Positions 1 through 25,885 are shown, numbered from the stretch's first letter. The stretch: DNA of 32,641 nucleotides from a virus (IMGVR_UViG_2671180283_000027); one strand, 5' to 3'. The notes: generated by a model not told the origin, from the sequence alone. A program made the numbers and translations.

Positions 1-1362
1 ATGTTTAAACCGGAACTCCTTTCCCCGGCGGGAACGCTGAAAAATATGCGTTACGCTTTCGCTTATGGCGCAGATGCTGTTTATGCGGGCCAGCCGCGTT
101 ACTCCCTGCGTGTGCGCAACAACGAATTCAACCACGAAAATCTTCAGCTCGGCATCAATGAAGCCCACGCGCTGGGGAAAAAGTTTTATGTCGTGGTCAA
201 CATTGCACCGCACAACGCCAAGCTGAAAACCTTTATCCGTGACCTGAAACCGGTGGTGGAAATGGGGCCGGATGCGCTGATTATGTCCGATCCAGGGCTG
301 ATTATGCTGGTGCGTGAGCACTTCCCTGAAATGCCGATCCACCTCTCGGTGCAGGCTAACGCCGTAAACTGGGCGACGGTGAAATTCTGGCAGCAAATGG
401 GCCTGACCCGCGTGATCCTCTCTCGCGAGCTGTCGCTGGAAGAGATTGAAGAGATCCGCAATCAGGTGCCGGATATGGAGATCGAGATCTTCGTTCACGG
501 CGCACTGTGCATGGCCTACTCCGGTCGCTGCCTGCTCTCTGGCTATATCAACAAGCGCGATCCGAACCAGGGTACCTGCACCAACGCCTGCCGCTGGGAG
601 TACAACGTCCAGGAAGGGAAAGAAGATGACGTTGGCAACATCGTACACAAGTACGAGCCGATTCCGGTGCAAAATGTTGAGCCGACGCTGGGTATCGGCG
701 CGCCAACCGACAAAGTGTTTATGATCGAAGAAGCCCAGCGTCCGGGCGAGTATATGACCGCGTTTGAAGATGAGCACGGCACTTACATCATGAACTCGAA
801 AGATCTGCGCGCCATCGCCCATGTAGAACGCCTGACCAAAATGGGCGTGCATTCGCTGAAAATCGAAGGCCGTACTAAATCTTTCTACTATTGCGCACGC
901 ACCGCACAGGTTTACCGTAAAGCTATCGATGACGCCGCTGCGGGCAAACCGTTCGATACCAGCCTGCTGGAAACTCTGGAAGGTCTGGCGCATCGTGGCT
1001 ATACCGAAGGTTTCCTGCGTCGTCATACTCACGACGATTATCAGAACTACGAATACGGTTATTCAGTTTCTGACCGCCAGCAGTTTGTTGGTGAGTTTAC
1101 CGGTGAGCGCAAGGGGGACCTCGCGGCGGTAGCGGTGAAAAATAAATTCTCCGTTGGCGACAGCCTTGAGCTGATGACGCCGCAAGGCAACATTAACTTT
1201 ACCCTTGAGCACATGGAAAACGCCAAAGGTGAAGCGATGCCGGTCGCACCAGGCGATGGTTATACTGTGTGGCTCCCGGTCCCGCAGGATCTTGAGCTCA
1301 ATTACGCTCTGCTGATGCGTAATTTCTCCGGGGAAACCACGCGTAACCCACACGGTAAGTGA
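1..1362 (+). CDS. yegQ: U32-family peptidase YegQ (TrhP, tRNA hydroxylation); full-length 453 aa host gene
   Basis: ATG at position 1, 453-aa ORF; sequence recognised as E. coli YegQ; ordinary host G+C; lies immediately upstream of cyaR as in E. coli K-12. Confidence 0.85.
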   Translation: MFKPELLSPAGTLKNMRYAFAYGADAVYAGQPRYSLRVRNNEFNHENLQLGINEAHALGKKFYVVVNIAPHNAKLKTFIRDLKPVVEMGPDALIMSDPGLIMLVREHFPEMPIHLSVQANAVNWATVKFWQQMGLTRVILSRELSLEEIEEIRNQVPDMEIEIFVHGALCMAYSGRCLLSGYINKRDPNQGTCTNACRWEYNVQEGKEDDVGNIVHKYEPIPVQNVEPTLGIGAPTDKVFMIEEAQRPGEYMTAFEDEHGTYIMNSKDLRAIAHVERLTKMGVHSLKIEGRTKSFYYCARTAQVYRKAIDDAAAGKPFDTSLLETLEGLAHRGYTEGFLRRHTHDDYQNYEYGYSVSDRQQFVGEFTGERKGDLAAVAVKNKFSVGDSLELMTPQGNINFTLEHMENAKGEAMPVAPGDGYTVWLPVPQDLELNYALLMRNFSGETTRNPHGK

Positions 1363-1393
1363 TTAATTTCGATTATTTTTCCCGGATGGAAAA

Positions 1394-1415
1394 TTCTTAG
1401 AAACCGATCACATAC
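1394..1415 (+). promoter_or_regulatory. Candidate CRP site of the cyaR promoter, with a TATCAT -10 element at 1434-1439
   Basis: Perfect TCACA half-site at 1408-1412 with an imperfect left half; centred ~42 bp upstream of the predicted cyaR 5' end; cyaR is known to be CRP-activated. Confidence 0.4.
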
Positions 1416-1446
1416 AGCTGCATTTATTAAGGTTATCATCCGTTTC

Positions 1447-1533
1447 GCTGAAAAACATAACCCATAAAATGCTAGCTGTACCAGGAACCACCTCCTTAGC
1501 CTGTGTAATCTCCCTTACACGGGCTTATTTTTT
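1447..1533 (+). ncRNA. cyaR: CyaR (RyeE) Hfq-dependent small RNA; its 3' terminator overlaps the prophage attL core
   Basis: Sequence GCTGAAAAACATAACCCATAAAATGCTAGCTGTACCAGGAACCACCTCCTTAGCCTGTGTAATCTCCCTTACACGGGCTTATTTTTT matches my recollection of E. coli CyaR; terminator hairpin plus T-run at the 3' end. Confidence 0.8.
1507..1533. other. attL core (27 bp) of the P2-like prophage
   Basis: AATCTCCCTTACACGGGCTTATTTTTT is repeated exactly at 32078-32104; its reverse complement matches the P2 att core as I recall it. Confidence 0.75.
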
Positions 1534-1595
1534 ACGCGTAATACAATGAAATAAAAGGATTTATTTCTGGTCACGTCCACACATTGACCACATCG

Positions 1596-1621
1596 ACAAA
1601 AAAGCCCCTCGACTGAGGGGC
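1596..1621 (-). terminator. Rho-independent terminator downstream of ogr
   Basis: Stem GCCCCTC / GAGGGGC (1604-1610 and 1615-1621) with a 4-nt loop, followed on the minus strand by TTTTTT. Confidence 0.6.
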
Positions 1622-1634
1622 TTCCTGTTTGTAA

Positions 1635-1853
1635 TTACATCCACATAATTTGCTGCCCTGACGGCAACGGGTGCGGTCTTACGGCGTGGACTTCTCCCGG
1701 CTTCACGATGTATCGCTGTACCGACTCATAAGTGATGAACGTGGCGCTGCAATTCACGTTCTGACACTGGTGATAACGCTCTTTTGTCGTGTCAGTGATA
1801 TAGCGGCTTGTACGCGCATGTGCGGCATGCTGGCATAAAGGACAATGAAACAT
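1635..1853 (-). CDS. ogr: Ogr late-gene transcriptional activator (zinc-finger, 72 aa)
   Basis: MFHCPLCQHAAHARTSRYITDTTKERYHQCQNVNCSATF... recognised as P2 Ogr; start refined to the internal ATG at 1853, giving the expected 72 aa. Confidence 0.9.
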   Translation of the reverse strand: MFHCPLCQHAAHARTSRYITDTTKERYHQCQNVNCSATFITYESVQRYIVKPGEVHAVRPHPLPSGQQIMWM

Positions 1854-1934
1854 CGCGAGCACCTCTTCCGGTTTTGTTGATGGTGCCATTTTAGTTAATT
1901 TATCCTTATAAAACAAACAGATAAAATAAAAACA

Positions 1935-3098: not shown

Positions 3099-3577
3099 TA
3101 TCCCGCCCCCGTCATACCCGTGAATTTAGTCGCCATACTGCCAGCCTTACCGATGAGCGATTCCGCCTGTTTACCGATATCGCCATAAAGCGCGGCCAGT
3201 GATTCATCAACGCGGATGAGCGACAGCGTAAAATCAATTTTCCGGGGTGTGCCGTCTGCAAAGAAAATACTCCCTGTTTCACTCACCTTGCTGATGACAT
3301 ACATGCCGTAAATCATGCCGGTGCCATCCAGCAACGGCCACGCCCGCCCCTCCTCTGCCATCAGCCTGAGCGTGGTCATCGTCAGCTTGCCGCCGGTCAG
3401 TTCGGGATAAAGCACACCGGCAAGCGTGATGTTTTCCTCACCCACACCGAGAAACTGAAAAGCGTCCCGTTTACCGATACGGGAATTTGACGGCCAGCGA
3501 TAATCTGATTCACGCTGCATGGTCTGGTGTGGCAGCGTCTGGCGCATAAAAACAAACATACCTAACGCGAGCATCAT
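3098..3577 (-). CDS. U: Tail protein gpU (159 aa)
   Basis: P2 order T-U-D; size matches gpU. Confidence 0.85.
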   Translation of the reverse strand: MMLALGMFVFMRQTLPHQTMQRESDYRWPSNSRIGKRDAFQFLGVGEENITLAGVLYPELTGGKLTMTTLRLMAEEGRAWPLLDGTGMIYGMYVISKVSETGSIFFADGTPRKIDFTLSLIRVDESLAALYGDIGKQAESLIGKAGSMATKFTGMTGAG

Positions 3578-3591
3578 TTTTCGTCACCTCC

Positions 3592-6039
3592 TTAACCGTC
3601 ATGCATCATGCTGGCACGGGCGCGCGCACGTTTATCCCGCTCGTATTTTTCGAGCGCATCCTGTAACTGGCGGTCGAGCTGTGTCCCCGGCGCAGTACCA
3701 CCCGTCAGGCTGATGTGATATTCGTTTTTACTCTGGTCTACATAAGAGCGGCCAGCCGGTGCCGTGACCGGCTGATAAGCCTGATAACCTGCATAAGAGC
3801 TGGTCGCCGGAATATAACCACCGCTGCCATACGTGGCGGCTTGAGTTCTGGCGGCTGTCTGGTCAAGTGTGTCTGACTCTTTGTTGATAACACCGAGTTT
3901 TTCCAGTACCCAGTCAATACCACTGCGCAGTTTGTTGAACGCATTAAGCGGCAGCATCAGCGCGTCAGCCAGTGCCTGCCCGAACATAACGCCCGTGTCA
4001 CGGCAACGGTTCAGGGTGTCCCGGGTGGCTTTGACCGGGGCAATCAGGTTTTTAAACCACTGCCACGCGGCCTGTAACTTTTCACCCAGCCAGTCAAACA
4101 CCGGTTTAAGTGGCGTGAACAGTTCCCCCACCGGCGCAAATGCCGCTTTCAGCCCTTCCACCACACCGCCAAAGAATGCGCTGACAGGCTCCCAGTATTT
4201 ACGGATAAGCAACGCCCCGGCGACAATGGCGGCCACCACGGCCACAACCGGCCAGCTAATCGCCCCGATGGCGGTTATAACAGCACTGCCAACCGTCGTG
4301 AAGATTGCCCCCATTGCGCCTGCTGCCGCGATGATGGCATTGATGCCGGTGATAACCGGCCAGGCTACGAGGCCAATGGCACCGATGACACCAGTCAGTG
4401 CCAGTGCACCACCGACAATGATGCCGATGGTTGACGCCAGTGATTTGTTTTTCTGGATCCAGCCGTCGAGTTTTAACACATACTTTGTGGCCGTCTGCGT
4501 GAGATTACGCAGTGCGCCTTCCTGCTGGTCAAACAGGTCAGTCCCCACCGCCTCATAAGCGGACTGAAACTCCTTAAAGTCACCGCCGAGGTTGTCCTGC
4601 ATGATATTTACCAGCTCTGCGGTCTTCCCGTCTGAGGCTTTAAACGCAGCGGTCAGTTTGTCCAGCTTTCCGGTTGAGGCGGCAGTCATCAGCACAGCGG
4701 CGGCTGAGCTGGCCTCCTCCCCGAAAATGGTTTTCATGTATTCAGCCTGCTGGGCAGTACCGAGCCGGTTTTTCTCAAAACTGGCCTGCATTTCTTTCAG
4801 AATGGTAAATATTGGCCGGGTGTTTCCCTTGCTGTCTGAGGTTTCCACTCCAAGCTCTTTGAGTGCATCCCATGCTTTTCCCGTCGGTGCCTGCAGGCGG
4901 CTTAACACGGCACGGCTTCCCGTCCCCGCCATTGAGCCTGTGATTTTTGCATCATGCAGCGCCCCGACCATTGCGGCGGTTTCTTCAATGCTGACACCGG
5001 CATTTTTTGCCACAGGTGCGGCATAGGTCAGCGCATCGCTCATGCCGTCAAAATCGGCGGCGGTTTTGTTCATCGTCATGGAGAGAACATCCCCGATATG
5101 AGCGACCTTATCGTTTGAAAGCTGAAAGGCGGATTTCATCCCCATCAGCAGGGCGGCGTTTTCTTCCATCGTGCGGCGGTTCGCCAGCGCCATATTCAGC
5201 GTGACCGGCGTTGCCGCCTGAATGGCATCAACATCCCCACCGGCTTTCGCAATGATAATCTGTGCACCGGCTGCATCATCTGCCGAGGCTGCGGTATTGT
5301 CGCCGAGCTGGCGCGCCTGCTTGCGGAGTGCGGTCATTTCGGCGGAGTCTTTTGCCACTCCCAGCACAGCCTGCAATTCTGAGTTTTTCTGCGCAAACTC
5401 ATAACCGGGCATCAGCAGCTTAACTCCGGCCATCGTTCCCGCAGCAGCAATCCCCACACCGGCAGCGCCCACCGAGACCATATTTCCGGCCAGCTCCTTT
5501 CCGGCCTGATAACGCTGTTTGACTGCGTTAAGTTTTGCCTGTTGCGCACTGACACGCGCCAGCGCGTCGCGCTGACGGTTAAGCTGTGCGGTGGTTTCAC
5601 TGATACGGTTTTTCAGTCCCTGCTCATCATGTGCAAGATTGCGGGTATTAATTCCCACAGCGGCCAGTTCCCGCTGCTGGCGTTTAACGGAATCCGTCAG
5701 GCGGTTATATTTCGCCTGTAAGTCCTCCGCCGCACGCTTTGCGGATTCCAGCACTTTCGCCTGAGCACGGGTCGGACGTTCGGTGTTTTTAAACTGTGTG
5801 GCAAGGGCTTCTGCTTCCTGCCGAGCCTTTTCAAGTGCATGACCAGTCACGGCGAGCTGTGCACTGGTCTTGCGGAATCCCTCAATACGGGATGCGTGAC
5901 CGTTCAGCTCGCGCAGTGATTTTTGTGTTTCCCGGATATCCCCCGACAGCGACTTGCTCGCTGTGCGGATGGATTTAAACGGGCGGGATGCCTGGTCAAC
6001 AGCCCTGAGCAATACCTGTAATTTTACATTGTTACTCAT
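3592..6039 (-). CDS. T: Tail tape measure protein gpT (815 aa)
   Basis: Long Ala/Gly-rich and coiled-coil protein of the P2 gpT length, between E/E' and U. Confidence 0.9.
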   Translation of the reverse strand: MSNNVKLQVLLRAVDQASRPFKSIRTASKSLSGDIRETQKSLRELNGHASRIEGFRKTSAQLAVTGHALEKARQEAEALATQFKNTERPTRAQAKVLESAKRAAEDLQAKYNRLTDSVKRQQRELAAVGINTRNLAHDEQGLKNRISETTAQLNRQRDALARVSAQQAKLNAVKQRYQAGKELAGNMVSVGAAGVGIAAAGTMAGVKLLMPGYEFAQKNSELQAVLGVAKDSAEMTALRKQARQLGDNTAASADDAAGAQIIIAKAGGDVDAIQAATPVTLNMALANRRTMEENAALLMGMKSAFQLSNDKVAHIGDVLSMTMNKTAADFDGMSDALTYAAPVAKNAGVSIEETAAMVGALHDAKITGSMAGTGSRAVLSRLQAPTGKAWDALKELGVETSDSKGNTRPIFTILKEMQASFEKNRLGTAQQAEYMKTIFGEEASSAAAVLMTAASTGKLDKLTAAFKASDGKTAELVNIMQDNLGGDFKEFQSAYEAVGTDLFDQQEGALRNLTQTATKYVLKLDGWIQKNKSLASTIGIIVGGALALTGVIGAIGLVAWPVITGINAIIAAAGAMGAIFTTVGSAVITAIGAISWPVVAVVAAIVAGALLIRKYWEPVSAFFGGVVEGLKAAFAPVGELFTPLKPVFDWLGEKLQAAWQWFKNLIAPVKATRDTLNRCRDTGVMFGQALADALMLPLNAFNKLRSGIDWVLEKLGVINKESDTLDQTAARTQAATYGSGGYIPATSSYAGYQAYQPVTAPAGRSYVDQSKNEYHISLTGGTAPGTQLDRQLQDALEKYERDKRARARASMMHDG

Positions 6040-8296: not shown

Positions 8297-8890
8297 CTAT
8301 TTGTCCCGGTTGGCTAAGGGATGACACAATTTATTCTTTGTCGCTGATGAGGGGAATTTTTTATAGAGCGTGGACAGGCCAATATCAAAAATCAGCGCCA
8401 CGCGTTGACGTGATTCACCCGCAGCCAGCAACCGTCCTGCCTGTTCCCACTCACTCGCGGTGAGCTTCGGACGTCTGCCACCAATACGACCTTTGGCTCT
8501 GGCCGCTTCCAGTCCGGCGCGAGTCCGCTCGACAATGAGTTCTCGTTCCATTTCAGCCAGGGCACCCATCACATGAAAGAAAAAACGTCCCATCGGCGTG
8601 CTGGTATCAATGGCATCCGTCAGGCTGCGAAAATTAATGCCGCGTTCGCGCAGCTCCTCAACCAGAATAACCAGATGCCGCATACTACGCCCCAGCCGGT
8701 CCAGCTTCCAGACTACCAGTGTATCCCCCTCCGATAATGTCCTGAGCAGTTTTTTCAGTCCCGGCCTGTCGGACTTCGTGCCGCTGATTTTATCCTCAAA
8801 AATCAGCTCACATCCTGCACACTCCAGCGCGTTACGCTGCAATTCCGTATTCTGGTCATTTGTTGACACGCGGACATAGCCAATAAGCAT
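8297..8890 (-). CDS. Serine DNA invertase (Hin/Gin/Cin/Pin family, 197 aa)
   Basis: N-terminus MLIGYVRVSTNDQ with the catalytic Ser, resolvase/invertase motifs, C-terminal HTH; sits beside an inverted-repeat tail-fibre cassette. Confidence 0.9.
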   Translation of the reverse strand: MLIGYVRVSTNDQNTELQRNALECAGCELIFEDKISGTKSDRPGLKKLLRTLSEGDTLVVWKLDRLGRSMRHLVILVEELRERGINFRSLTDAIDTSTPMGRFFFHVMGALAEMERELIVERTRAGLEAARAKGRIGGRRPKLTASEWEQAGRLLAAGESRQRVALIFDIGLSTLYKKFPSSATKNKLCHPLANRDK

Positions 8891-8917
8891 GATGGATCCC
8901 CTGAATAAAAACCGGGG

Positions 8918-9424
8918 ATGATGCCAGTTAGCCGTAATCTCTGCATTTTCTTAAACGTTGGTTTGGGAGAAGGCTCCGCGCTACCGGTGGGCGTACCGGT
9001 TCCGTGGCCTCTCCCGAACCCACCACAGGGATGGCTTAAATATAACGGTGCGCCCTTCGATAAAAACATATATCCGAAATTAGGTGCAGTTTATCCGGCT
9101 GGCGTATTACCCGACTTACGCGGCGAGTTTATTCGCGGCTGGGATGATGGGCGGGGAGTGGATGCAGGGAGAATCATATTAGCTCAGCAGGGTGATGCTA
9201 TTAGAAATATTACAGGTTTCGTGAGTGGTTCTTCTGGCGTTTCGTTTGATAGTTTTTCTGGTGCTTTTTACGATTCGGGGGTAAGAAGCGGCAGAAGGCC
9301 TGAGAGTACGACTATTGTTGATATGAATGATGATTTTGCTTTTGATGCTTCCCGGGTAGTGCCAACTGCAAATGAAAATCGCCCGCGAAATCTTGCATTC
9401 AATTACATAGTTCGTGCAGCTTAA
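8918..9424 (+). CDS. Silent alternative tail-fibre C-terminal cassette (Sv'-like; no credible own start)
   Basis: Shares the repeat-encoded segment with H and the conserved C-terminal VPTANENRPRNLxFNYIVRA, but has a different ~50-aa variable stretch; the opening codons are probably an ORF-caller artefact. Confidence 0.6.
   Translation: MMPVSRNLCIFLNVGLGEGSALPVGVPVPWPLPNPPQGWLKYNGAPFDKNIYPKLGAVYPAGVLPDLRGEFIRGWDDGRGVDAGRIILAQQGDAIRNITGFVSGSSGVSFDSFSGAFYDSGVRSGRRPESTTIVDMNDDFAFDASRVVPTANENRPRNLAFNYIVRAA
8946..8971. other. Invertase crossover site (hix/gix/cix-like 26-bp site), invertase-proximal
   Basis: TTTTCTTAAACG-TT-GGTTTGGGAGAA: imperfect palindrome with half-site TTCTCnnAAACC and central TT/AA, at the outer edge of the inverted repeat. 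Confidence 0.65.
8946..9213 (+). repeat. Inverted repeat arm A (~265 bp) of the tail-fibre inversion cassette
   Basis: Near-identical by eye to the reverse complement of 10395-10661; encodes the same ~83 aa (LGEGSALPVGVPVPWPLPNPPQGW...AIRNITG). Confidence 0.85.
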
Positions 9425-9431
9425 ATGAAAA

Positions 9432-9468
9432 GCCGTCTTAATGGGGTCAGTCCATAATGACGGCTTAA
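9432..9468. terminator. Hairpin between the convergent alternative cassette and the tail fibre assembly gene (possible bidirectional terminator)
   Basis: 15-bp imperfect inverted repeat AAGCCGTCTTAATGG / CCATAATGACGGCTT around a short loop. Confidence 0.35.
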
Positions 9469-9477
9469 TCATCTTTA

Positions 9478-10083
9478 TCAAATTGAGGGCGGCTCAGGTA
9501 GTATCGCAGTTGGAAAATCTGAGGGTTTAATGGCATTCAGCGCATCAATATAATCAAGCCACAGGTTAAACTTGCTTGTTTCTGTTTCGCTCATTCGATT
9601 GAGTTGTAACTTTGAAGGCCAGTTATTTTTATTAATGACCGCATTAGCCTCATCAATCAGCGCCTGAATTTTCATTTCAAATGCCTGAACGTCAGCAACT
9701 CTTTTTGCATCGATATCCGTTATCCACTCAGTACCATTCCAGACATCAAATTGAGTTTCTGGCGCAATTGTGGTGGTATTTTCTGGAAGCTCTCCTAAAA
9801 ACCGAACAGTGATTTTCTCCCCTGTATCAGTTTTATAAACTTCTGCTTCACGGTGATCTTCAACATACTCCCAGCCGTTCAGATCTTCATTACGACAAAT
9901 AGCAAAGCCAGCCTTGAATTTGCCGGGTTTATCAGTACAGGAATGGGCAGGCACGCCCACGCCTTCTGCAAGATATTCAACGGTTGATGACAGGTACTCA
10001 CGGGTGATGGCATCATAGTTATAAACAGTGATTTCACCTGCCGATGATGCGATCCCATATGTATTCAAAATAGCTTCACTCAT
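9478..10083 (-). CDS. G: Tail fibre assembly chaperone (gpG/Tfa-like, ~201 aa)
   Basis: Directly downstream of H; C-terminal region typical of Tfa proteins; start refined to the ATG at 10083 with an AAGGA ribosome-binding site (the ORF track starts at an upstream GTG). Confidence 0.8.
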   Translation of the reverse strand: MSEAILNTYGIASSAGEITVYNYDAITREYLSSTVEYLAEGVGVPAHSCTDKPGKFKAGFAICRNEDLNGWEYVEDHREAEVYKTDTGEKITVRFLGELPENTTTIAPETQFDVWNGTEWITDIDAKRVADVQAFEMKIQALIDEANAVINKNNWPSKLQLNRMSETETSKFNLWLDYIDALNAIKPSDFPTAILPEPPSI

Positions 10084-10155
10084 TCTCTTATCCTTCGTGC
10101 TGGGGCAAGATTCTACTATACTGAGCGTCCTCACTTATTCTTGATATTGATGTTG

Positions 10156-11475
10156 TTACATAGCCCTCACAATGTAATTAAATGACAGGTTACGTGGGCG
10201 GTTTTCATTTGCAGTTGGAACCATCAAGGAAGCATCAAAAAAAAGCGCAGCAAATCTATCGTCTGTCGCTCCAATAGCAACATCTACTTGAGCGGCATAC
10301 GATCCAAACTCACCGTCAGTGCGGAAAGCACCTGTTGCCCCTGCATTAAAAAGCCTTGCTGATGTAGCTGCATTTCGTCCCTGAACCCCACCAGTGATAT
10401 TTCTAATAGCATCACCCTGCTGAGCTAATATGATTCTCCCTGCATCCACTCCCCGCCCATCATCCCAACCGCGAATAAACTCGCCGCGTAAGTCGGGTAA
10501 TACGCCAGCCGGATAAACTGCACCTAATTTCGGATATATGTTTTTATCAAAGGGTGCACCGTTATATTTAAGCCATCCCTGTGGTGGGTTCGGGAGGGGC
10601 CACGGCACCGGTACGCCCACCGGCAGTGCCGAACCTTCTCCCAAACCAAGGTATGCGAGAAGACCGGCAACATCCTTTCCACTCAAATGAGTCAGCGTCT
10701 CATCCAGTGGCTGCTTACCTGACAGCGCATTGTTAATGGTGGTACTGAATTTCGGGTCATTGTTAATGGCTGCGGCAATTTCTTTCAGTGTGTCCAGCGT
10801 GGCTGGCGCACCGTTAATCAGAGCGGTAATAGCGGCCTGAACAAACTCAGTGGTCGCAATCCGCGTGGTGTTATTTCCTGCGGCAGGCGTCGGCGCTTTT
10901 GGTTCTCCGGTAAATGTCGGATTATGTTTCTGTGCATACTGGGTATGAGGATCCTGTGCGGCAATGTGGTTTCTCATCTGGTCATCCACATACAGCCTTA
11001 ATTCCAGGACTTCATCATCCACGTATTTACGGGTCGCCAGTACCACCGACGGGTCGATTTTCAGCGTAATAGCTTCGGTATTCGTGACAACCAGAATCAT
11101 GCGGATAGTCTGGGTACGACCACTGCCTTCCTGCAACTGCGGTTTGTACGTTTCCGGGCAGTTCGCCACCGCAATGAGTACGCCTTCATCATCATAAAGC
11201 CCAATCTCACGGATCCAGAATCCGCCCTCGTTCTCAGGGATGATTTGCTCCGCAATAATCTGGCTCTGGTTGTTCGGGTCAACACTCAGAAGATTCAGTG
11301 GCGCGATGCGTTTCTGGTTAATCAGTTTTGTCTGTGCCGGGTCTGGTGTCGGCAAGACACCATTCGCATCACCAACGGCCATTTGCGTCAGATTCAGCTT
11401 ACTGCCGAGCATCGTCGCGTTAGCCAGCCGTGCTGCGCCCTGATTAGTCAGAATGGCGTAGTATTTCACTGTCAT
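10156..11475 (-). CDS. H: Tail fibre protein gpH (439 aa) with an invertible C-terminal region
   Basis: N-terminus recognisably similar to P2 gpH; downstream of I; C-terminal third lies inside the invertible segment. Confidence 0.85.
   Translation of the reverse strand: MTVKYYAILTNQGAARLANATMLGSKLNLTQMAVGDANGVLPTPDPAQTKLINQKRIAPLNLLSVDPNNQSQIIAEQIIPENEGGFWIREIGLYDDEGVLIAVANCPETYKPQLQEGSGRTQTIRMILVVTNTEAITLKIDPSVVLATRKYVDDEVLELRLYVDDQMRNHIAAQDPHTQYAQKHNPTFTGEPKAPTPAAGNNTTRIATTEFVQAAITALINGAPATLDTLKEIAAAINNDPKFSTTINNALSGKQPLDETLTHLSGKDVAGLLAYLGLGEGSALPVGVPVPWPLPNPPQGWLKYNGAPFDKNIYPKLGAVYPAGVLPDLRGEFIRGWDDGRGVDAGRIILAQQGDAIRNITGGVQGRNAATSARLFNAGATGAFRTDGEFGSYAAQVDVAIGATDDRFAALFFDASLMVPTANENRPRNLSFNYIVRAM
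10395..10661 (-). repeat. Inverted repeat arm B (~265 bp), within the 3' third of gene H
   Basis: Reverse complement matches 8946-9213 with a few mismatches. Confidence 0.85.
10636..10661. other. Invertase crossover site inside the tail fibre gene H
   Basis: TTCTCCCAAACC-AA-GGTATGCGAGAA: half-sites match 10 of 12; identical central dinucleotide to the site at 8946-8971. Confidence 0.65.
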
Positions 11476-23533: not shown

Positions 23534-25885
23534 TTAAAGTTCTGTATATATTAGGCGTAGCATATCCTGCGCATAACTTTTCATATCTTCATCAGTCCAT
23601 TCACGGATAACGTGCATAGGCTCATTGAGTGCAGTTCTAAACCCATGAATTCTTCTGGCCGTCTCCTCTTCCAAAATACCATCTTCAGCCAGTCGATTAA
23701 TACACACAGAAAAATCCGTTCTATCATTTAAGTTGCAGTCTGTCAGTTGTTTGCGATAACGAGAACGGAATTCTGATTCAAGATATGGCCTTAAAGATAG
23801 TATTATTGTCTTATCAGTATCCACACCATTTATAAAATCAACAATCCTCTCATAGGATCTCTCATGGTCTGAAGCTATTAATTGCTCTACCTTCAGCGGT
23901 TCAAAATTAGAACCGTCTTGACCTTGTTTGATCTGAAGAATTCTATCCAAATTAAATTTTTGAGATGTCTTTGCTGCCATTCCTTTATAGTGTGTAGTAA
24001 TAAACATCTGTTTTACATAAGGCTGTAATTCATACAACTTCTGCAAAATACAAGATATTCTTTCCTCATCAAAACTTGTTACAGGATCATCCATAATAAG
24101 AATAGCTTTTGATTTCTCATCATTAGGTAACAAGTAAATTTTAGAAAGAAAGATGCACAAAGCCAAAGCTCGGCGATCTGACTCACTAAACAAACAATTA
24201 AGTTTGTTTTTTCCAACTGACTTCCCATTAAATGAAACGTCAAGTTCATAAACAATTTTTGTACCCTGCCTGTTTATTTTTTTATTTATAGAAAATTTAC
24301 TAGATCCAACAGAACAGAACAGAGAATTAATGTGCTCAAAATATTTGTTTAAAAATTGCTCCTGGCATTCCTCTAATGTTTTCTTCTTCTCATTATAGTT
24401 TTTTTCCCTAATATCTATTTCTTTTTTCAATTCAAGATATTCTCGACAATCTGGCTCAAGCAATAATCTTTTTTTATTAGATTCCCACTGCCCAAGATCT
24501 TTTTGATAGATTCCCAGTAATACATCTAATTTGGTGGAATTGATACTTTCTTTATACTTCACCAACTCATCATTGAGCTGATTAATAATGCTATTGTATG
24601 ATTCCAATTTGCCATGAATTTCATGCTCAAATTGTAGAAGAGCCGAAAAATCAAACCCCTTCATTTCGTTGTATACAGCTAATTCTTTCTCATCATATAT
24701 ACACTCCAGTGATTGCTGAGCCTTAAGTAGATCTTGGTTAAATGTCAATATATCATTTCTTACTTGATTATAAATAGCACAACATGACTCAAACCTTCCA
24801 TTATTACTTAATTCATTTTTTATCTCATTCTCTAAATACTGTGACAAAACATCAATGTTTTTGCTATGTACATCATCAATTACATTTAATGAGATAAATG
24901 AAAAATCAAGCCGCCTTATTTCTTTTAATTCTTTTTTTGTACTTTCAATAAAGCGCATAAATGACTCATCAAATGAATCCTTATAAGCACTAATCAGCTC
25001 TTTTGATTCTCCTGATATACTCTGACCGCAAAATGGACATATTTCTGTGGCCATACCAAGCCCATTTGAGATCCATCCATTAAAATGATCGTGAGCCTTT
25101 ATTCTCTCTTTATGTCGCTCTAATATAGAAAGTGCATCGTCATGAATTGTAGCCATTCCAGAAGAAAGACATTTATTAACCCTAATTGAAATATCTTTCA
25201 ACTTTGGTGTACAGTTAATTAAATTAAACAACGGCCTTGCTTTAATATATTTGACGGCTGTTTTCTTCTTTTCAACTTCTTGTATTGACTTAATAAGTTC
25301 ATTTATTTTTGAGTCAACGCAATCATAATCTGTTATGACAGGCTCACTATTAGCATACTCATCAACGTTATCAATTTGGTGTGATTGAATTAAATCTTTT
25401 TTACTTCTTAACGAACCTCTTAAACTTCTTAATTCTGCATTCTCCTTTTCCAGAGCTTCAAAAGCAGCAACATTGTCTTCACCCAAAATAAATGCAGTAA
25501 CACATTCAGAGTTTTCTCGATTAGATACTGTACCTGCCATTACATTTCTATGAACAAAACTCTGATCAAAGATATATAATTTAGAATCTGGTGGTGGTAA
25601 TCCTGACCATTTATCTACATAAAATGAAACAACTCTATTTGAACTCCCCTCTGTGAATTGTAAATCAATCTTTGGAGTTACTTCACCATCTCCCTCCAGA
25701 ATAGTCTTTCTGTTAACAACCAATTCAGGAGTATTCGTTGATAAAGAATAAAAGATGTCACAAAGAGTACTTTTACCATGTCTATTTTCACCGTAGATAA
25801 CATTCATGTTATTAAACTCATAAGAGCTGGAGCGAGCTTTAATATAGTTACCTACGCCCTCTATTAATTTAATCCTCTTTAACAT
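23534..25885 (-). CDS. Cargo: Rad50/SMC-like ABC ATPase (783 aa) with a CxxC-containing coiled-coil insert and a C-terminal putative nuclease domain; candidate RloC/PrrC-like anti-phage protein
   Basis: ATG with AAGGA ribosome-binding site; Walker A GENRHGKST (~32-40), Q-loop candidate (~Q108), coiled-coil region ~130-560 with CPFC at ~283-286, signature-like LFSESDRRALAL (~565-576), Walker B ILIMDD (~595-600), D-loop SFD, H-loop THY (~631-633), then a ~140-aa C-terminal domain with RPYLE (R699/E703) and downstream His; strongly AT-rich compared with the rest of the prophage. Confidence 0.7.
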   Translation of the reverse strand: MLKRIKLIEGVGNYIKARSSSYEFNNMNVIYGENRHGKSTLCDIFYSLSTNTPELVVNRKTILEGDGEVTPKIDLQFTEGSSNRVVSFYVDKWSGLPPPDSKLYIFDQSFVHRNVMAGTVSNRENSECVTAFILGEDNVAAFEALEKENAELRSLRGSLRSKKDLIQSHQIDNVDEYANSEPVITDYDCVDSKINELIKSIQEVEKKKTAVKYIKARPLFNLINCTPKLKDISIRVNKCLSSGMATIHDDALSILERHKERIKAHDHFNGWISNGLGMATEICPFCGQSISGESKELISAYKDSFDESFMRFIESTKKELKEIRRLDFSFISLNVIDDVHSKNIDVLSQYLENEIKNELSNNGRFESCCAIYNQVRNDILTFNQDLLKAQQSLECIYDEKELAVYNEMKGFDFSALLQFEHEIHGKLESYNSIINQLNDELVKYKESINSTKLDVLLGIYQKDLGQWESNKKRLLLEPDCREYLELKKEIDIREKNYNEKKKTLEECQEQFLNKYFEHINSLFCSVGSSKFSINKKINRQGTKIVYELDVSFNGKSVGKNKLNCLFSESDRRALALCIFLSKIYLLPNDEKSKAILIMDDPVTSFDEERISCILQKLYELQPYVKQMFITTHYKGMAAKTSQKFNLDRILQIKQGQDGSNFEPLKVEQLIASDHERSYERIVDFINGVDTDKTIILSLRPYLESEFRSRYRKQLTDCNLNDRTDFSVCINRLAEDGILEEETARRIHGFRTALNEPMHVIREWTDEDMKSYAQDMLRLIYTEL

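Follow-up and report, generated by a model that had tools for sequence, protein, structure and literature searches.

An invertible tail-fibre segment with a single assembly chaperone gene in a P2-like prophage

How can a phage exchange the tip of its tail fibre by DNA inversion if it carries only one gene for a tail-fibre assembly chaperone? The question is raised by a P2-like prophage in the viral sequence IMGVR_UViG_2671180283_000027, a stretch of 32,641 nt that was analysed whole and is called the window here. In this prophage the 3′ part of the tail-fibre gene H, the chaperone gene tfa and a silent alternative tip lie together in a segment next to the gene of a DNA invertase. We hold, with a probability of about 0.7, that the locus is a functional inversion switch of the Gin/Cin/Pin type, which exchanges the fibre tip and uses one tfa for both tips. 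It is of the ordinary Mu/P1/e14 type, and its sole departure from the canonical layout is the one chaperone gene shared by both tips. Does the segment flip, at which point, and what becomes of the chaperone gene when it does?

The first of these questions is answered by natural alleles. The segment interior (1,184 bp) is present in 6 of 5,426 complete Escherichia coli genomes at 99.7–100% identity, and a larger assembly collection has the exact Tfa protein in 182 of its indexed blocks. Across three prophage backbones in public E. coli genomes, at least 11 loci are in the window state and 5 are flipped. The window orientation is seen in Res13-Lact-PEA12-26 and DXMF6-3R. In PSS-12 and EC31 the prophage is the same and occupies the same place in the chromosome, but its segment is inverted, and tfa is there convergent to H. 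The cassette is also found in both orientations in a second P2-like backbone, which has a different constant part of H, a different invertase and a different sheath, being flipped in PEC414 and unflipped in ARL09/232. Three copies of the cassette are held by PSS-12 and two by ARL09/232.

The second question can be answered because the two arms of the inverted repeat that bounds the segment are 94% complementary over 272 nt and differ, on base-by-base comparison, at 16 positions, which were used as diagnostic markers for the crossover. The five markers in the outer half-site (8948–8957) stay with the flank in PEC414, EC31, GCA_013057285 and GCA_033744415, and of the 11 markers that begin at 8974 and lie further in, at least 10 have moved together with the interior in these same four independent genomes. 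Since the outer markers stay and the inner ones move, the crossover lies in 8958–8973, an interval of 16 bp that includes the predicted central TT. It does not fall in the 70–80-bp stretches of perfect identity further inside the arms, which is where homologous recombination should act. This mapping is our strongest result and confirms site-specific inversion at the predicted points: both orientations exist, and the exchange takes place at the centre of the sites. A preliminary description of this DNA had named 8958/8959 and 10648/10649 as the crossover points, had proposed that the 3′ part of H and a plus-strand cassette share an inverted repeat, and had placed 26-bp sites with an identical central AA/TT at its outer edges; all of this stands, and the arms are not too diverged at the crossover cores.

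The 26-bp sites themselves are imperfect palindromes in inverted orientation, and nothing else in the window fits the site pattern, which each of them matches with at most 2 mismatches (0 matches in 100 shuffles). The invertase-proximal site lines up, base by base, with those of Mu (gix) and e14, and its inner core, TTGGTTTGGGAGAAGG, is the published repeat of the e14 P segment (PMC12529663). A third site that would let tfa flip alone was sought and is absent from the 32.6-kb window. The last ~24 codons of the two tips lie in a second, shorter inverted repeat (9340–9411 and 10169–10240; 72 nt, 82%).

Two further observations concern the mobility of these sequences. In PSS-12 the breakpoint is bracketed just to 8957–9211 and the arms are partly homogenised: they are 98.9% identical, as against 95.4% in the window, and the arm linked to the expressed tip (Hv) has the alleles of the other arm at most diagnostic positions, a pattern that points to gene conversion between the arms. 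ARL09/232, besides the copy in its P2-like prophage, has a 1,184-bp interior 100% identical to that of the window (the specific part of the silent tip Hv′, tfa and the specific part of Hv) in a lambdoid prophage that is located at dusA and has another invertase (NZ_CP049967, 2624679–2631862), which suggests that co-resident prophages of different families have exchanged modules or undergone gene conversion with each other.

Invertases of the Gin/Hin/Cin/Pin family are small serine recombinases of ~190 amino acids (aa), with an N-terminal catalytic domain, a nucleophilic serine near residue 9–10 and a C-terminal helix-turn-helix. The window invertase has these domains, keeps the catalytic Ser9 within MLIGYVRVSTNDQ, and aligns over residues 1–182 with Mu Gin (PDB 3UJ3/4M6F; E = 1.2e-94 for 3UJ3) at ~80% identity; its gene is intact, in agreement with the earlier assignment of a Hin/Gin-type invertase between the tail fibre assembly gene and FI. 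The Gin, Hin and Cin systems have a cis-acting, Fis-dependent enhancer within the 5′ portion of the invertase gene itself. The recombinational enhancer is annotated at cin nt 19–90 in the P1 record, and to this region the window gene aligns without gaps at 78% identity, compared with 69% when the first 540 nt are taken together. Synonymous codons, compared across 43 dereplicated invertase genes, are more alike here (identity 0.70) than elsewhere (0.53). A cis element within coding sequence would be expected to leave such a signature, and the stretch probably contains a Fis-type enhancer.

At its other end the invertase has a 15-residue C-terminal tail (8297–8341) that is absent from Gin and is partly encoded by the late-promoter region of the FI operon, and the pF activator dyad (8311–8328, minus strand, TGTGTCATCCCTTAGCCA) falls inside the invertase coding sequence. 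The hairpin upstream of the invertase start codon is followed by TTTATT on the minus strand and may insulate the invertase from read-through of the late operon.

Flipping the segment replaces the 439-aa H by an in-frame H of 430 aa, and the intact 430-aa form is annotated in PSS-12, EC31 and PEC414, so that H does acquire a different C-terminus, as had been proposed. One fibre gene can end in either of two in-frame C-termini, and its constant part and promoter are outside the segment. Hv and Hv′ share the first ~88 residues past the crossover and the last ~24, and differ in a central block of ~45–55 residues, which presumably contacts the receptor. An alignment of tips shows that those of the collar type all share the C-terminal motif ...RPRN.(A/S)FNYIVRA.

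Two side observations belong to the silent tip. An ATG at 8918, outside the segment, opens a 168-aa StfE-like open reading frame (ORF) on the plus strand (8918–9424) which runs into Hv′ and becomes 176 aa long when the segment is flipped; this ATG and its leader are conserved with e14 stfE and PEC414, and more loosely with Mu. The Hv′ copy in E. coli ARL09/232 (2070–2572 of locus L007 in our set) is annotated as frameshifted, which could reflect decay or a sequencing error.

How closely does the locus resemble the well-studied switches? As in the Mu G/Gin system, the fibre gene, the segment and the invertase point in one direction, the 5′ end of the invertase gene is next to the segment, and a constant N-terminus joins alternative C-termini; the similarity extends to the invertase and to the sites, as described above. 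Mu differs in its 34-bp repeats, in its 3-kb segment and in its chaperone genes U and U′, each of which starts 2 nt after a tip, in contrast to the 272-bp repeat, the one tfa and the 72-nt spacer before tfa in the window. P1 C/Cin and p15B Min use a recombinase of the same subfamily, and the window invertase can be aligned with cin at the enhancer, but cin abuts its segment by the 3′ end and the segment is 4.2 kb long with U and U′; the Min system of p15B has six sites. The e14 P segment, inverted by PinE and also by PinQ, has the identical core mentioned above, a homologous junction between site and invertase that includes the StfE-type ATG, one tip of the collar type, and a TfaE 52% identical to the window Tfa. 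Unlike the window prophage, e14 is a defective lambdoid element with two chaperone genes (tfaP and tfaE), and it is for e14 that a role in host defence (through StfE2) has been shown.

A same-orientation chaperone gene after each tip, as in Mu G, P1 C and e14 P, is not found here. As the preliminary description had stated for the cassette, the segment has a single Tfa-like ORF, and there is no second one: just 53 nt, filled by a hairpin, separate the stop of Hv′ (9424) from that of tfa (9478). To see how unusual this is, we surveyed 79 viral-contig loci that encode an invertase at least 80% identical to that of the window. Segment boundaries were located by the site motif (inverted-repeat detection by BLAST misses short repeats of 16–26 bp), Tfa-like ORFs were scored with a hidden Markov model built from 13 known Tfa proteins, and the 45 segments with both boundaries were counted. 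Two intact convergent tfa genes are present in 38 of them, fragmented tfa genes in 5 and a single tfa in 2. In the two-tfa segments, the tfa that follows H starts at most 26 nt past the H stop, often by an ATGA overlap, and a collar-collar cassette in Erwinia dacicola likewise has two tfa genes. Two chaperones are the rule; the single-tfa layout is real and not unique, since already sequenced loci, one of them published, share it. The preliminary description had also held that the flipped state sets the only tfa convergent to H; this is borne out by the flipped genomes, but the uniqueness it implied was overstated, as the two loci considered next make clear.

The published one is the 'shufflon' of the P2-like prophage in enteropathogenic E. 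coli (EPEC) E2348/69, for which four states and inversion have been documented by sequencing and polymerase chain reaction (Goldberg et al. 2014, PMC4272514). It resembles the window locus in its P2-like setting, in collar tips that end ...FNYIVR(A/T)A, in repeats of 215–239 bp across the collar domain, and in having one tfa, which is convergent to H in the 'forward' state that makes up 90%. It differs in having three tips and four states, in a tfa that is translationally coupled to one tip, and in its invertase and backbone. The other, an undescribed P2-like prophage of Trabulsiella odontotermitis (L026), has the nearest relative of the window Tfa (70% identity), again as a single gene, with one expressed tip and two silent ones in tandem. 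Its repeats of 254–271 bp are like those of the window, and it has the same uncoupling spacer and expression signals around tfa (see below). Besides its three tips, it differs in a 219-nt tfa leader with an extra 147 nt and in a gene for an N6/N4 DNA methylase between the invertase and FI (L026 6360–7112). A hairpin with 24-bp arms lies at 3928–3976 within this leader (L026 3830–4000).

Further searches added little to this pair. A scan of genome contigs with Tfa for more single-tfa relatives gave just 3 distant loci, an exact-pattern scan of viral contigs for relatives of the single-tfa cassette gave 0 matches, and a distant blastn search with the H–tfa spacer returned the same 6 E. coli genomes and nothing further. 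The 107 pattern matches in metagenomes were discarded as chance, none being beside a Tfa homologue. In some related loci a non-collar tip is followed by a small ORF that has no Pfam match and is not Caudo_TAP (65 aa in L004, from E. coli FDN-9, 3313–3510; 115 aa in L027–L029, 4575–4922), and these ORFs may be unrecognised chaperones.

It is plausible that the tips share a chaperone, because they share the collar domain and the C-terminal end and differ in the central ~50 residues. Nor need the flipped state lack one, for tfa seems to be served by a promoter of its own within the segment. The gene is not coupled to H, from which a spacer of 72 nt separates it; its AAGGA ribosome-binding site is kept in the Trabulsiella relative; and the terminator hairpin after it, with predicted folding energies of −21.6 and −22.4 kcal/mol (z −5.2 and −3.7), has an analogue at the same place in the Trabulsiella prophage. 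P2 late promoters activated by Ogr or delta have a TGT-N12-ACA dyad near −55, a recognisable −10 and a poor −35. The prophage encodes ogr. The activator consensus as cited in PMC3931495, TGT-N12-ACA, has four perfect matches in the window, and one of them overlaps the H stop codon with TATAGT 33 nt downstream. The candidate thus has both the dyad and a recognisable −10: its dyad is centred ~54.5 nt upstream of the predicted start, compared with −55.5 to −57.5, relative to the mapped starts, for the dyads of the annotated P2 promoters pF, pO and pP, and the phage's own pF and pV regions have one-mismatch dyads at the position expected from P2. A composite motif, defined as TGT-N12-ACA followed after 31–36 nt by a hexamer matching TATAAT at 5 or more of 6 positions, occurs once on the two strands of the window, directly upstream of tfa, with ~0.25 expected per shuffled window, and within 260 nt upstream of none of the 89 other tfa ORFs in the related segments. 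The Trabulsiella locus keeps the dyad (TGTGCGAGCGATGTAACA) and GTATAGT at a spacing of 34 nt versus 33 nt, although the 33 nt between are only ~27% identical. Two other candidates were set aside: TGT-N10-ACA with TTGACA at 8861–8876, which comes from conserved VSTNDQ codons and has the wrong spacing, and a TGT-N12-ACA between site and invertase in EPEC, which has no −10 at the right distance and is not counted as support.

On these grounds tfa may be a self-contained late transcription unit inside invertible DNA, with a candidate promoter of its own, a proposal to which we give slightly less than an even chance. Broader, and tentative, is the idea that a 'one chaperone, many tips' arrangement evolved in collar-type switches, in which tfa was cut loose from the fibre gene, received a private Ogr-dependent late promoter and its own ribosome-binding site and terminator, and stayed inside the segment to be made either way; we would expect it to fail somewhat more often than to hold. 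If it is true, new tips could be added as bare cassettes of ~150 codons, as in the three-tip Trabulsiella locus.

Several points count against these proposals. A sigma-70 consensus scan upstream of tfa gives no promoter in either orientation. Conservation of the dyad alone is weak evidence, since the ...IVRAM-stop codons of H constrain its TGT and part of its ACA, and the footprint of the promoter is backed by just two lineages. The identical cassette also resides in a lambdoid prophage, which should lack Ogr. The EPEC shufflon, with its single tfa, has neither the spacer nor the motif; a private tfa promoter is therefore not a general solution. With regard to the tips, the frameshifted Hv′ copy in ARL09/232 has to be reckoned with, and the tip most like Hv′ is normally paired with a Tfa merely 36% identical to that of the window, so that service of both tips by one Tfa can be no more than presumed.

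With these reservations, we propose that the switch works as follows. The invertase would pair both 26-bp sites, probably aided by a Fis-bound enhancer in the 5′ end of its own gene, and strand exchange at the central TT would flip 8959–10648. The last ~164 codons of H would thereby be replaced by the ~155 codons of the silent cassette, giving a fibre of 439 aa or 430 aa, and lysogens would release phage of two adsorption specificities. Throughout, tfa, having its own ribosome-binding site and terminator and a candidate late promoter activated by Ogr, would be transcribed in either orientation.

Could the single tfa instead be a sign of decay? On this account a chaperone gene once followed Hv′ and was deleted; the segment still inverts, but the flipped state makes H′ without co-expressed Tfa and yields fibre-less or non-infectious particles, which would turn an A/B switch into an ON/OFF one. 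The norm of two tfa genes seen in the survey and in the Erwinia dacicola collar-collar cassette speaks for it, as do the pseudogenised tfa genes and tips in 5 of the 45 relatives, the frameshift in one Hv′ copy and the youth of the cassette, all copies of which are 99.7–100% identical. However, the cassette has spread to three prophage backbones and many assemblies, as the 182 indexed blocks with its Tfa also indicate; a diverged relative with three tips likewise has an uncoupled tfa with its own ribosome-binding site, a terminator and a promoter-like motif; and the EPEC locus, which flips experimentally, also has a single tfa. We regard decay as unlikely, while granting it more credence than any other alternative.

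Rather less probable still is that the flipped tip does not depend on the tfa unit of the cassette. Hv′ might fold free of chaperones, Tfa might be supplied by other prophages, or tfa might be read from a promoter on the invertase side. The cassette is present three times in PSS-12 and twice in ARL09/232, and several tfa genes per genome are usual in E. coli, but the tfa genes of other prophages are not expressed with the late genes of this phage, and collar tips otherwise almost always have tfa after them. As to an invertase-side promoter, the pin-proximal ORF of e14 (stfE/stfE2) is evidently expressed natively, as plasmid-cured inverted cells resist T2 (PMC12529663); the junction in the window is homologous and keeps the ATG, and a transcript from there would, in the flipped state, run through Hv into tfa. 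Yet a sigma-70 consensus scan of the plus strand at 8800–8958 found no promoter-like site.

The same e14 work bears on a further alternative, to which we give marginally less weight again, namely that the segment is kept mainly for the host: the product of the ORF at 8918–9424, or its flipped 176-aa form, would act as a free tip protein of the fibre, masking receptors and keeping other phages out. For e14, StfE2, the product of the flipped state, is reported to block T2 adsorption, an effect shown with a gp53-like tip rather than a collar tip (PMC12529663). The crossover core of the window is the same as that of e14, its leader is homologous, and the Prokaryotic Genome Annotation Pipeline (PGAP) calls the ORF in every copy. 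Against this, the tip of the window ORF is not of the kind for which the e14 effect was found, and the ATG at 8918 directly abuts GGGG, a poor spacing for a ribosome-binding site. The prophage, moreover, looks complete, and the fibre switch itself is therefore under phage selection. The 168/176-aa ORF could, in addition to the fibre switch and not instead of it, exclude phages as StfE2 does. Finally, general recombination by RecA between the 272-bp repeats, with the invertase irrelevant, could draw on repeats long enough for homologous recombination and on the homogenised arms and loosely bracketed breakpoint of PSS-12, but is effectively refuted by the crossover mapping, 4 of 4 resolvable natural flips having crossed over within the 16 bp at the outer edge, and by relatives that flip with repeats of merely 16–26 bp.

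The surroundings of the switch are those of P2. On DNA level the window matches P2-like phages, and an ORF map with Pfam domains, compared with the annotated P2 genome, places a P2-like prophage on the minus strand, with gene sizes matching those of P2 and, in minus-strand order, D, U, T, E/E′, FII, FI, invertase, invertible segment, H, I, J, W and V. In P2 the genes run Q, P, O, N, M, L ... V, W, J, I, H, G, FI, FII, E, T, U, D and ogr, along with int, C, cox, B and A, and the prophage has this gene order; ogr, gene A, int and head genes are present as well, so that the prophage is apparently complete. The coordinates of the features of the switch are given in Table 1.

At one end of the prophage, ogr (1635–1853, minus) abuts a gene for the small RNA CyaR/RyeE (1445–1530; Rfam, 100.7 bits), beside which lies a peptidase-U32 gene (1–1362; the whole junction occupies window 1–1860). 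We take this end to be the yegQ–cyaR site, where E. coli K-12 keeps the ogrK remnant of P2. A 783-aa AAA_13 ATPase (23534–25885, minus), which along its whole length matches PDC-S06, a candidate defence family in PADLOC (E = 6.5e-154), is encoded in the old/tin hotspot of P2, with the portal gene Q on one side and the replication gene A on the other.

Table 1. Features of the invertible locus; positions are counted from the first nucleotide of the window.
Feature	Position	Strand	Basis or detail
DNA invertase, Gin/Cin/Pin subfamily of small serine recombinases, 197 aa, intact	8297–8890	minus	Pfam Resolvase 3e-52, HTH_7 1e-12
Putative recombinational (Fis-type) enhancer, invertase nt 19–90	8801–8872	minus	alignment to P1 cin enhancer; synonymous conservation
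Terminator-like hairpin between proximal crossover site and invertase start codon	8910–8929	minus	sequence kept in e14 and PEC414
Left arm of 272-bp inverted repeat, collar domain of silent tip	8946–9217	plus	
Invertase-proximal 26-bp crossover site (pix/gix type), central TT at 8958/8959	8946–8971	plus	TTTTCTTAAACG-TT-GGTTTGGGAGAA
Invertible segment, 1,690 bp	8959–10648		in-silico flip reproduces PSS-12 allele; natural crossovers mapped to 8958–8973
Silent alternative C-terminus of H (Hv′), promoterless, collar type	8959–9424	plus	Pfam Collar
Hairpin between convergent Hv′ and tfa stops, predicted intrinsic terminator for tfa	9430–9466		folding; followed by UUUUCAUUU on minus strand
Single tail-fibre assembly chaperone gene (tfa), 201 aa, own AAGGA ribosome-binding site	9478–10083	minus	Pfam Caudo_TAP 1.3e-20
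Candidate Ogr-type late promoter for tfa, predicted start near 10108	10108–10171	minus	motif geometry
Dyad of candidate tfa promoter	10171–10154	minus	TGTGAGGGCTATGTAACA
TATAGT of candidate tfa promoter	10120–10115	minus	
Tail-fibre gene H, 439 aa	10156–11475	minus	Pfam Phage_tail_fib and Collar
Currently expressed variable C-terminus of H (Hv), 164 codons	10156–10648	minus	
Right arm of 272-bp inverted repeat, collar domain of expressed tip	10390–10661	minus	
H-internal 26-bp crossover site, central TT (minus strand) at 10649/10648	10636–10661	minus	TTCTCGCATACC-TT-GGTTTGGGAGAA
Constant N-terminal part of H	10649–11475	minus	Pfam Phage_tail_fib 1.5e-62

Invertible fibre segments are a textbook case of programmed host-range variation, and to this the locus adds no new principle. 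It does provide an unusually clean natural demonstration of the crossover point, as the nucleotide differences between the arms put the exchange within 16 bp of the predicted centre, and since P2-like and lambdoid prophages both have this cassette, it is also an example of modules passing between phage families. What novelty remains lies in the shared chaperone and its candidate private late promoter. A tfa that is the sole chaperone gene available to two or three receptor-binding tips bears on the specificity of such chaperones, and the single-tfa layout is relevant to engineering the host range of phages or tailocins with minimal cassettes. A candidate Ogr-type promoter at the H stop codon would explain how tfa continues to be expressed when it has been flipped away from its operon.

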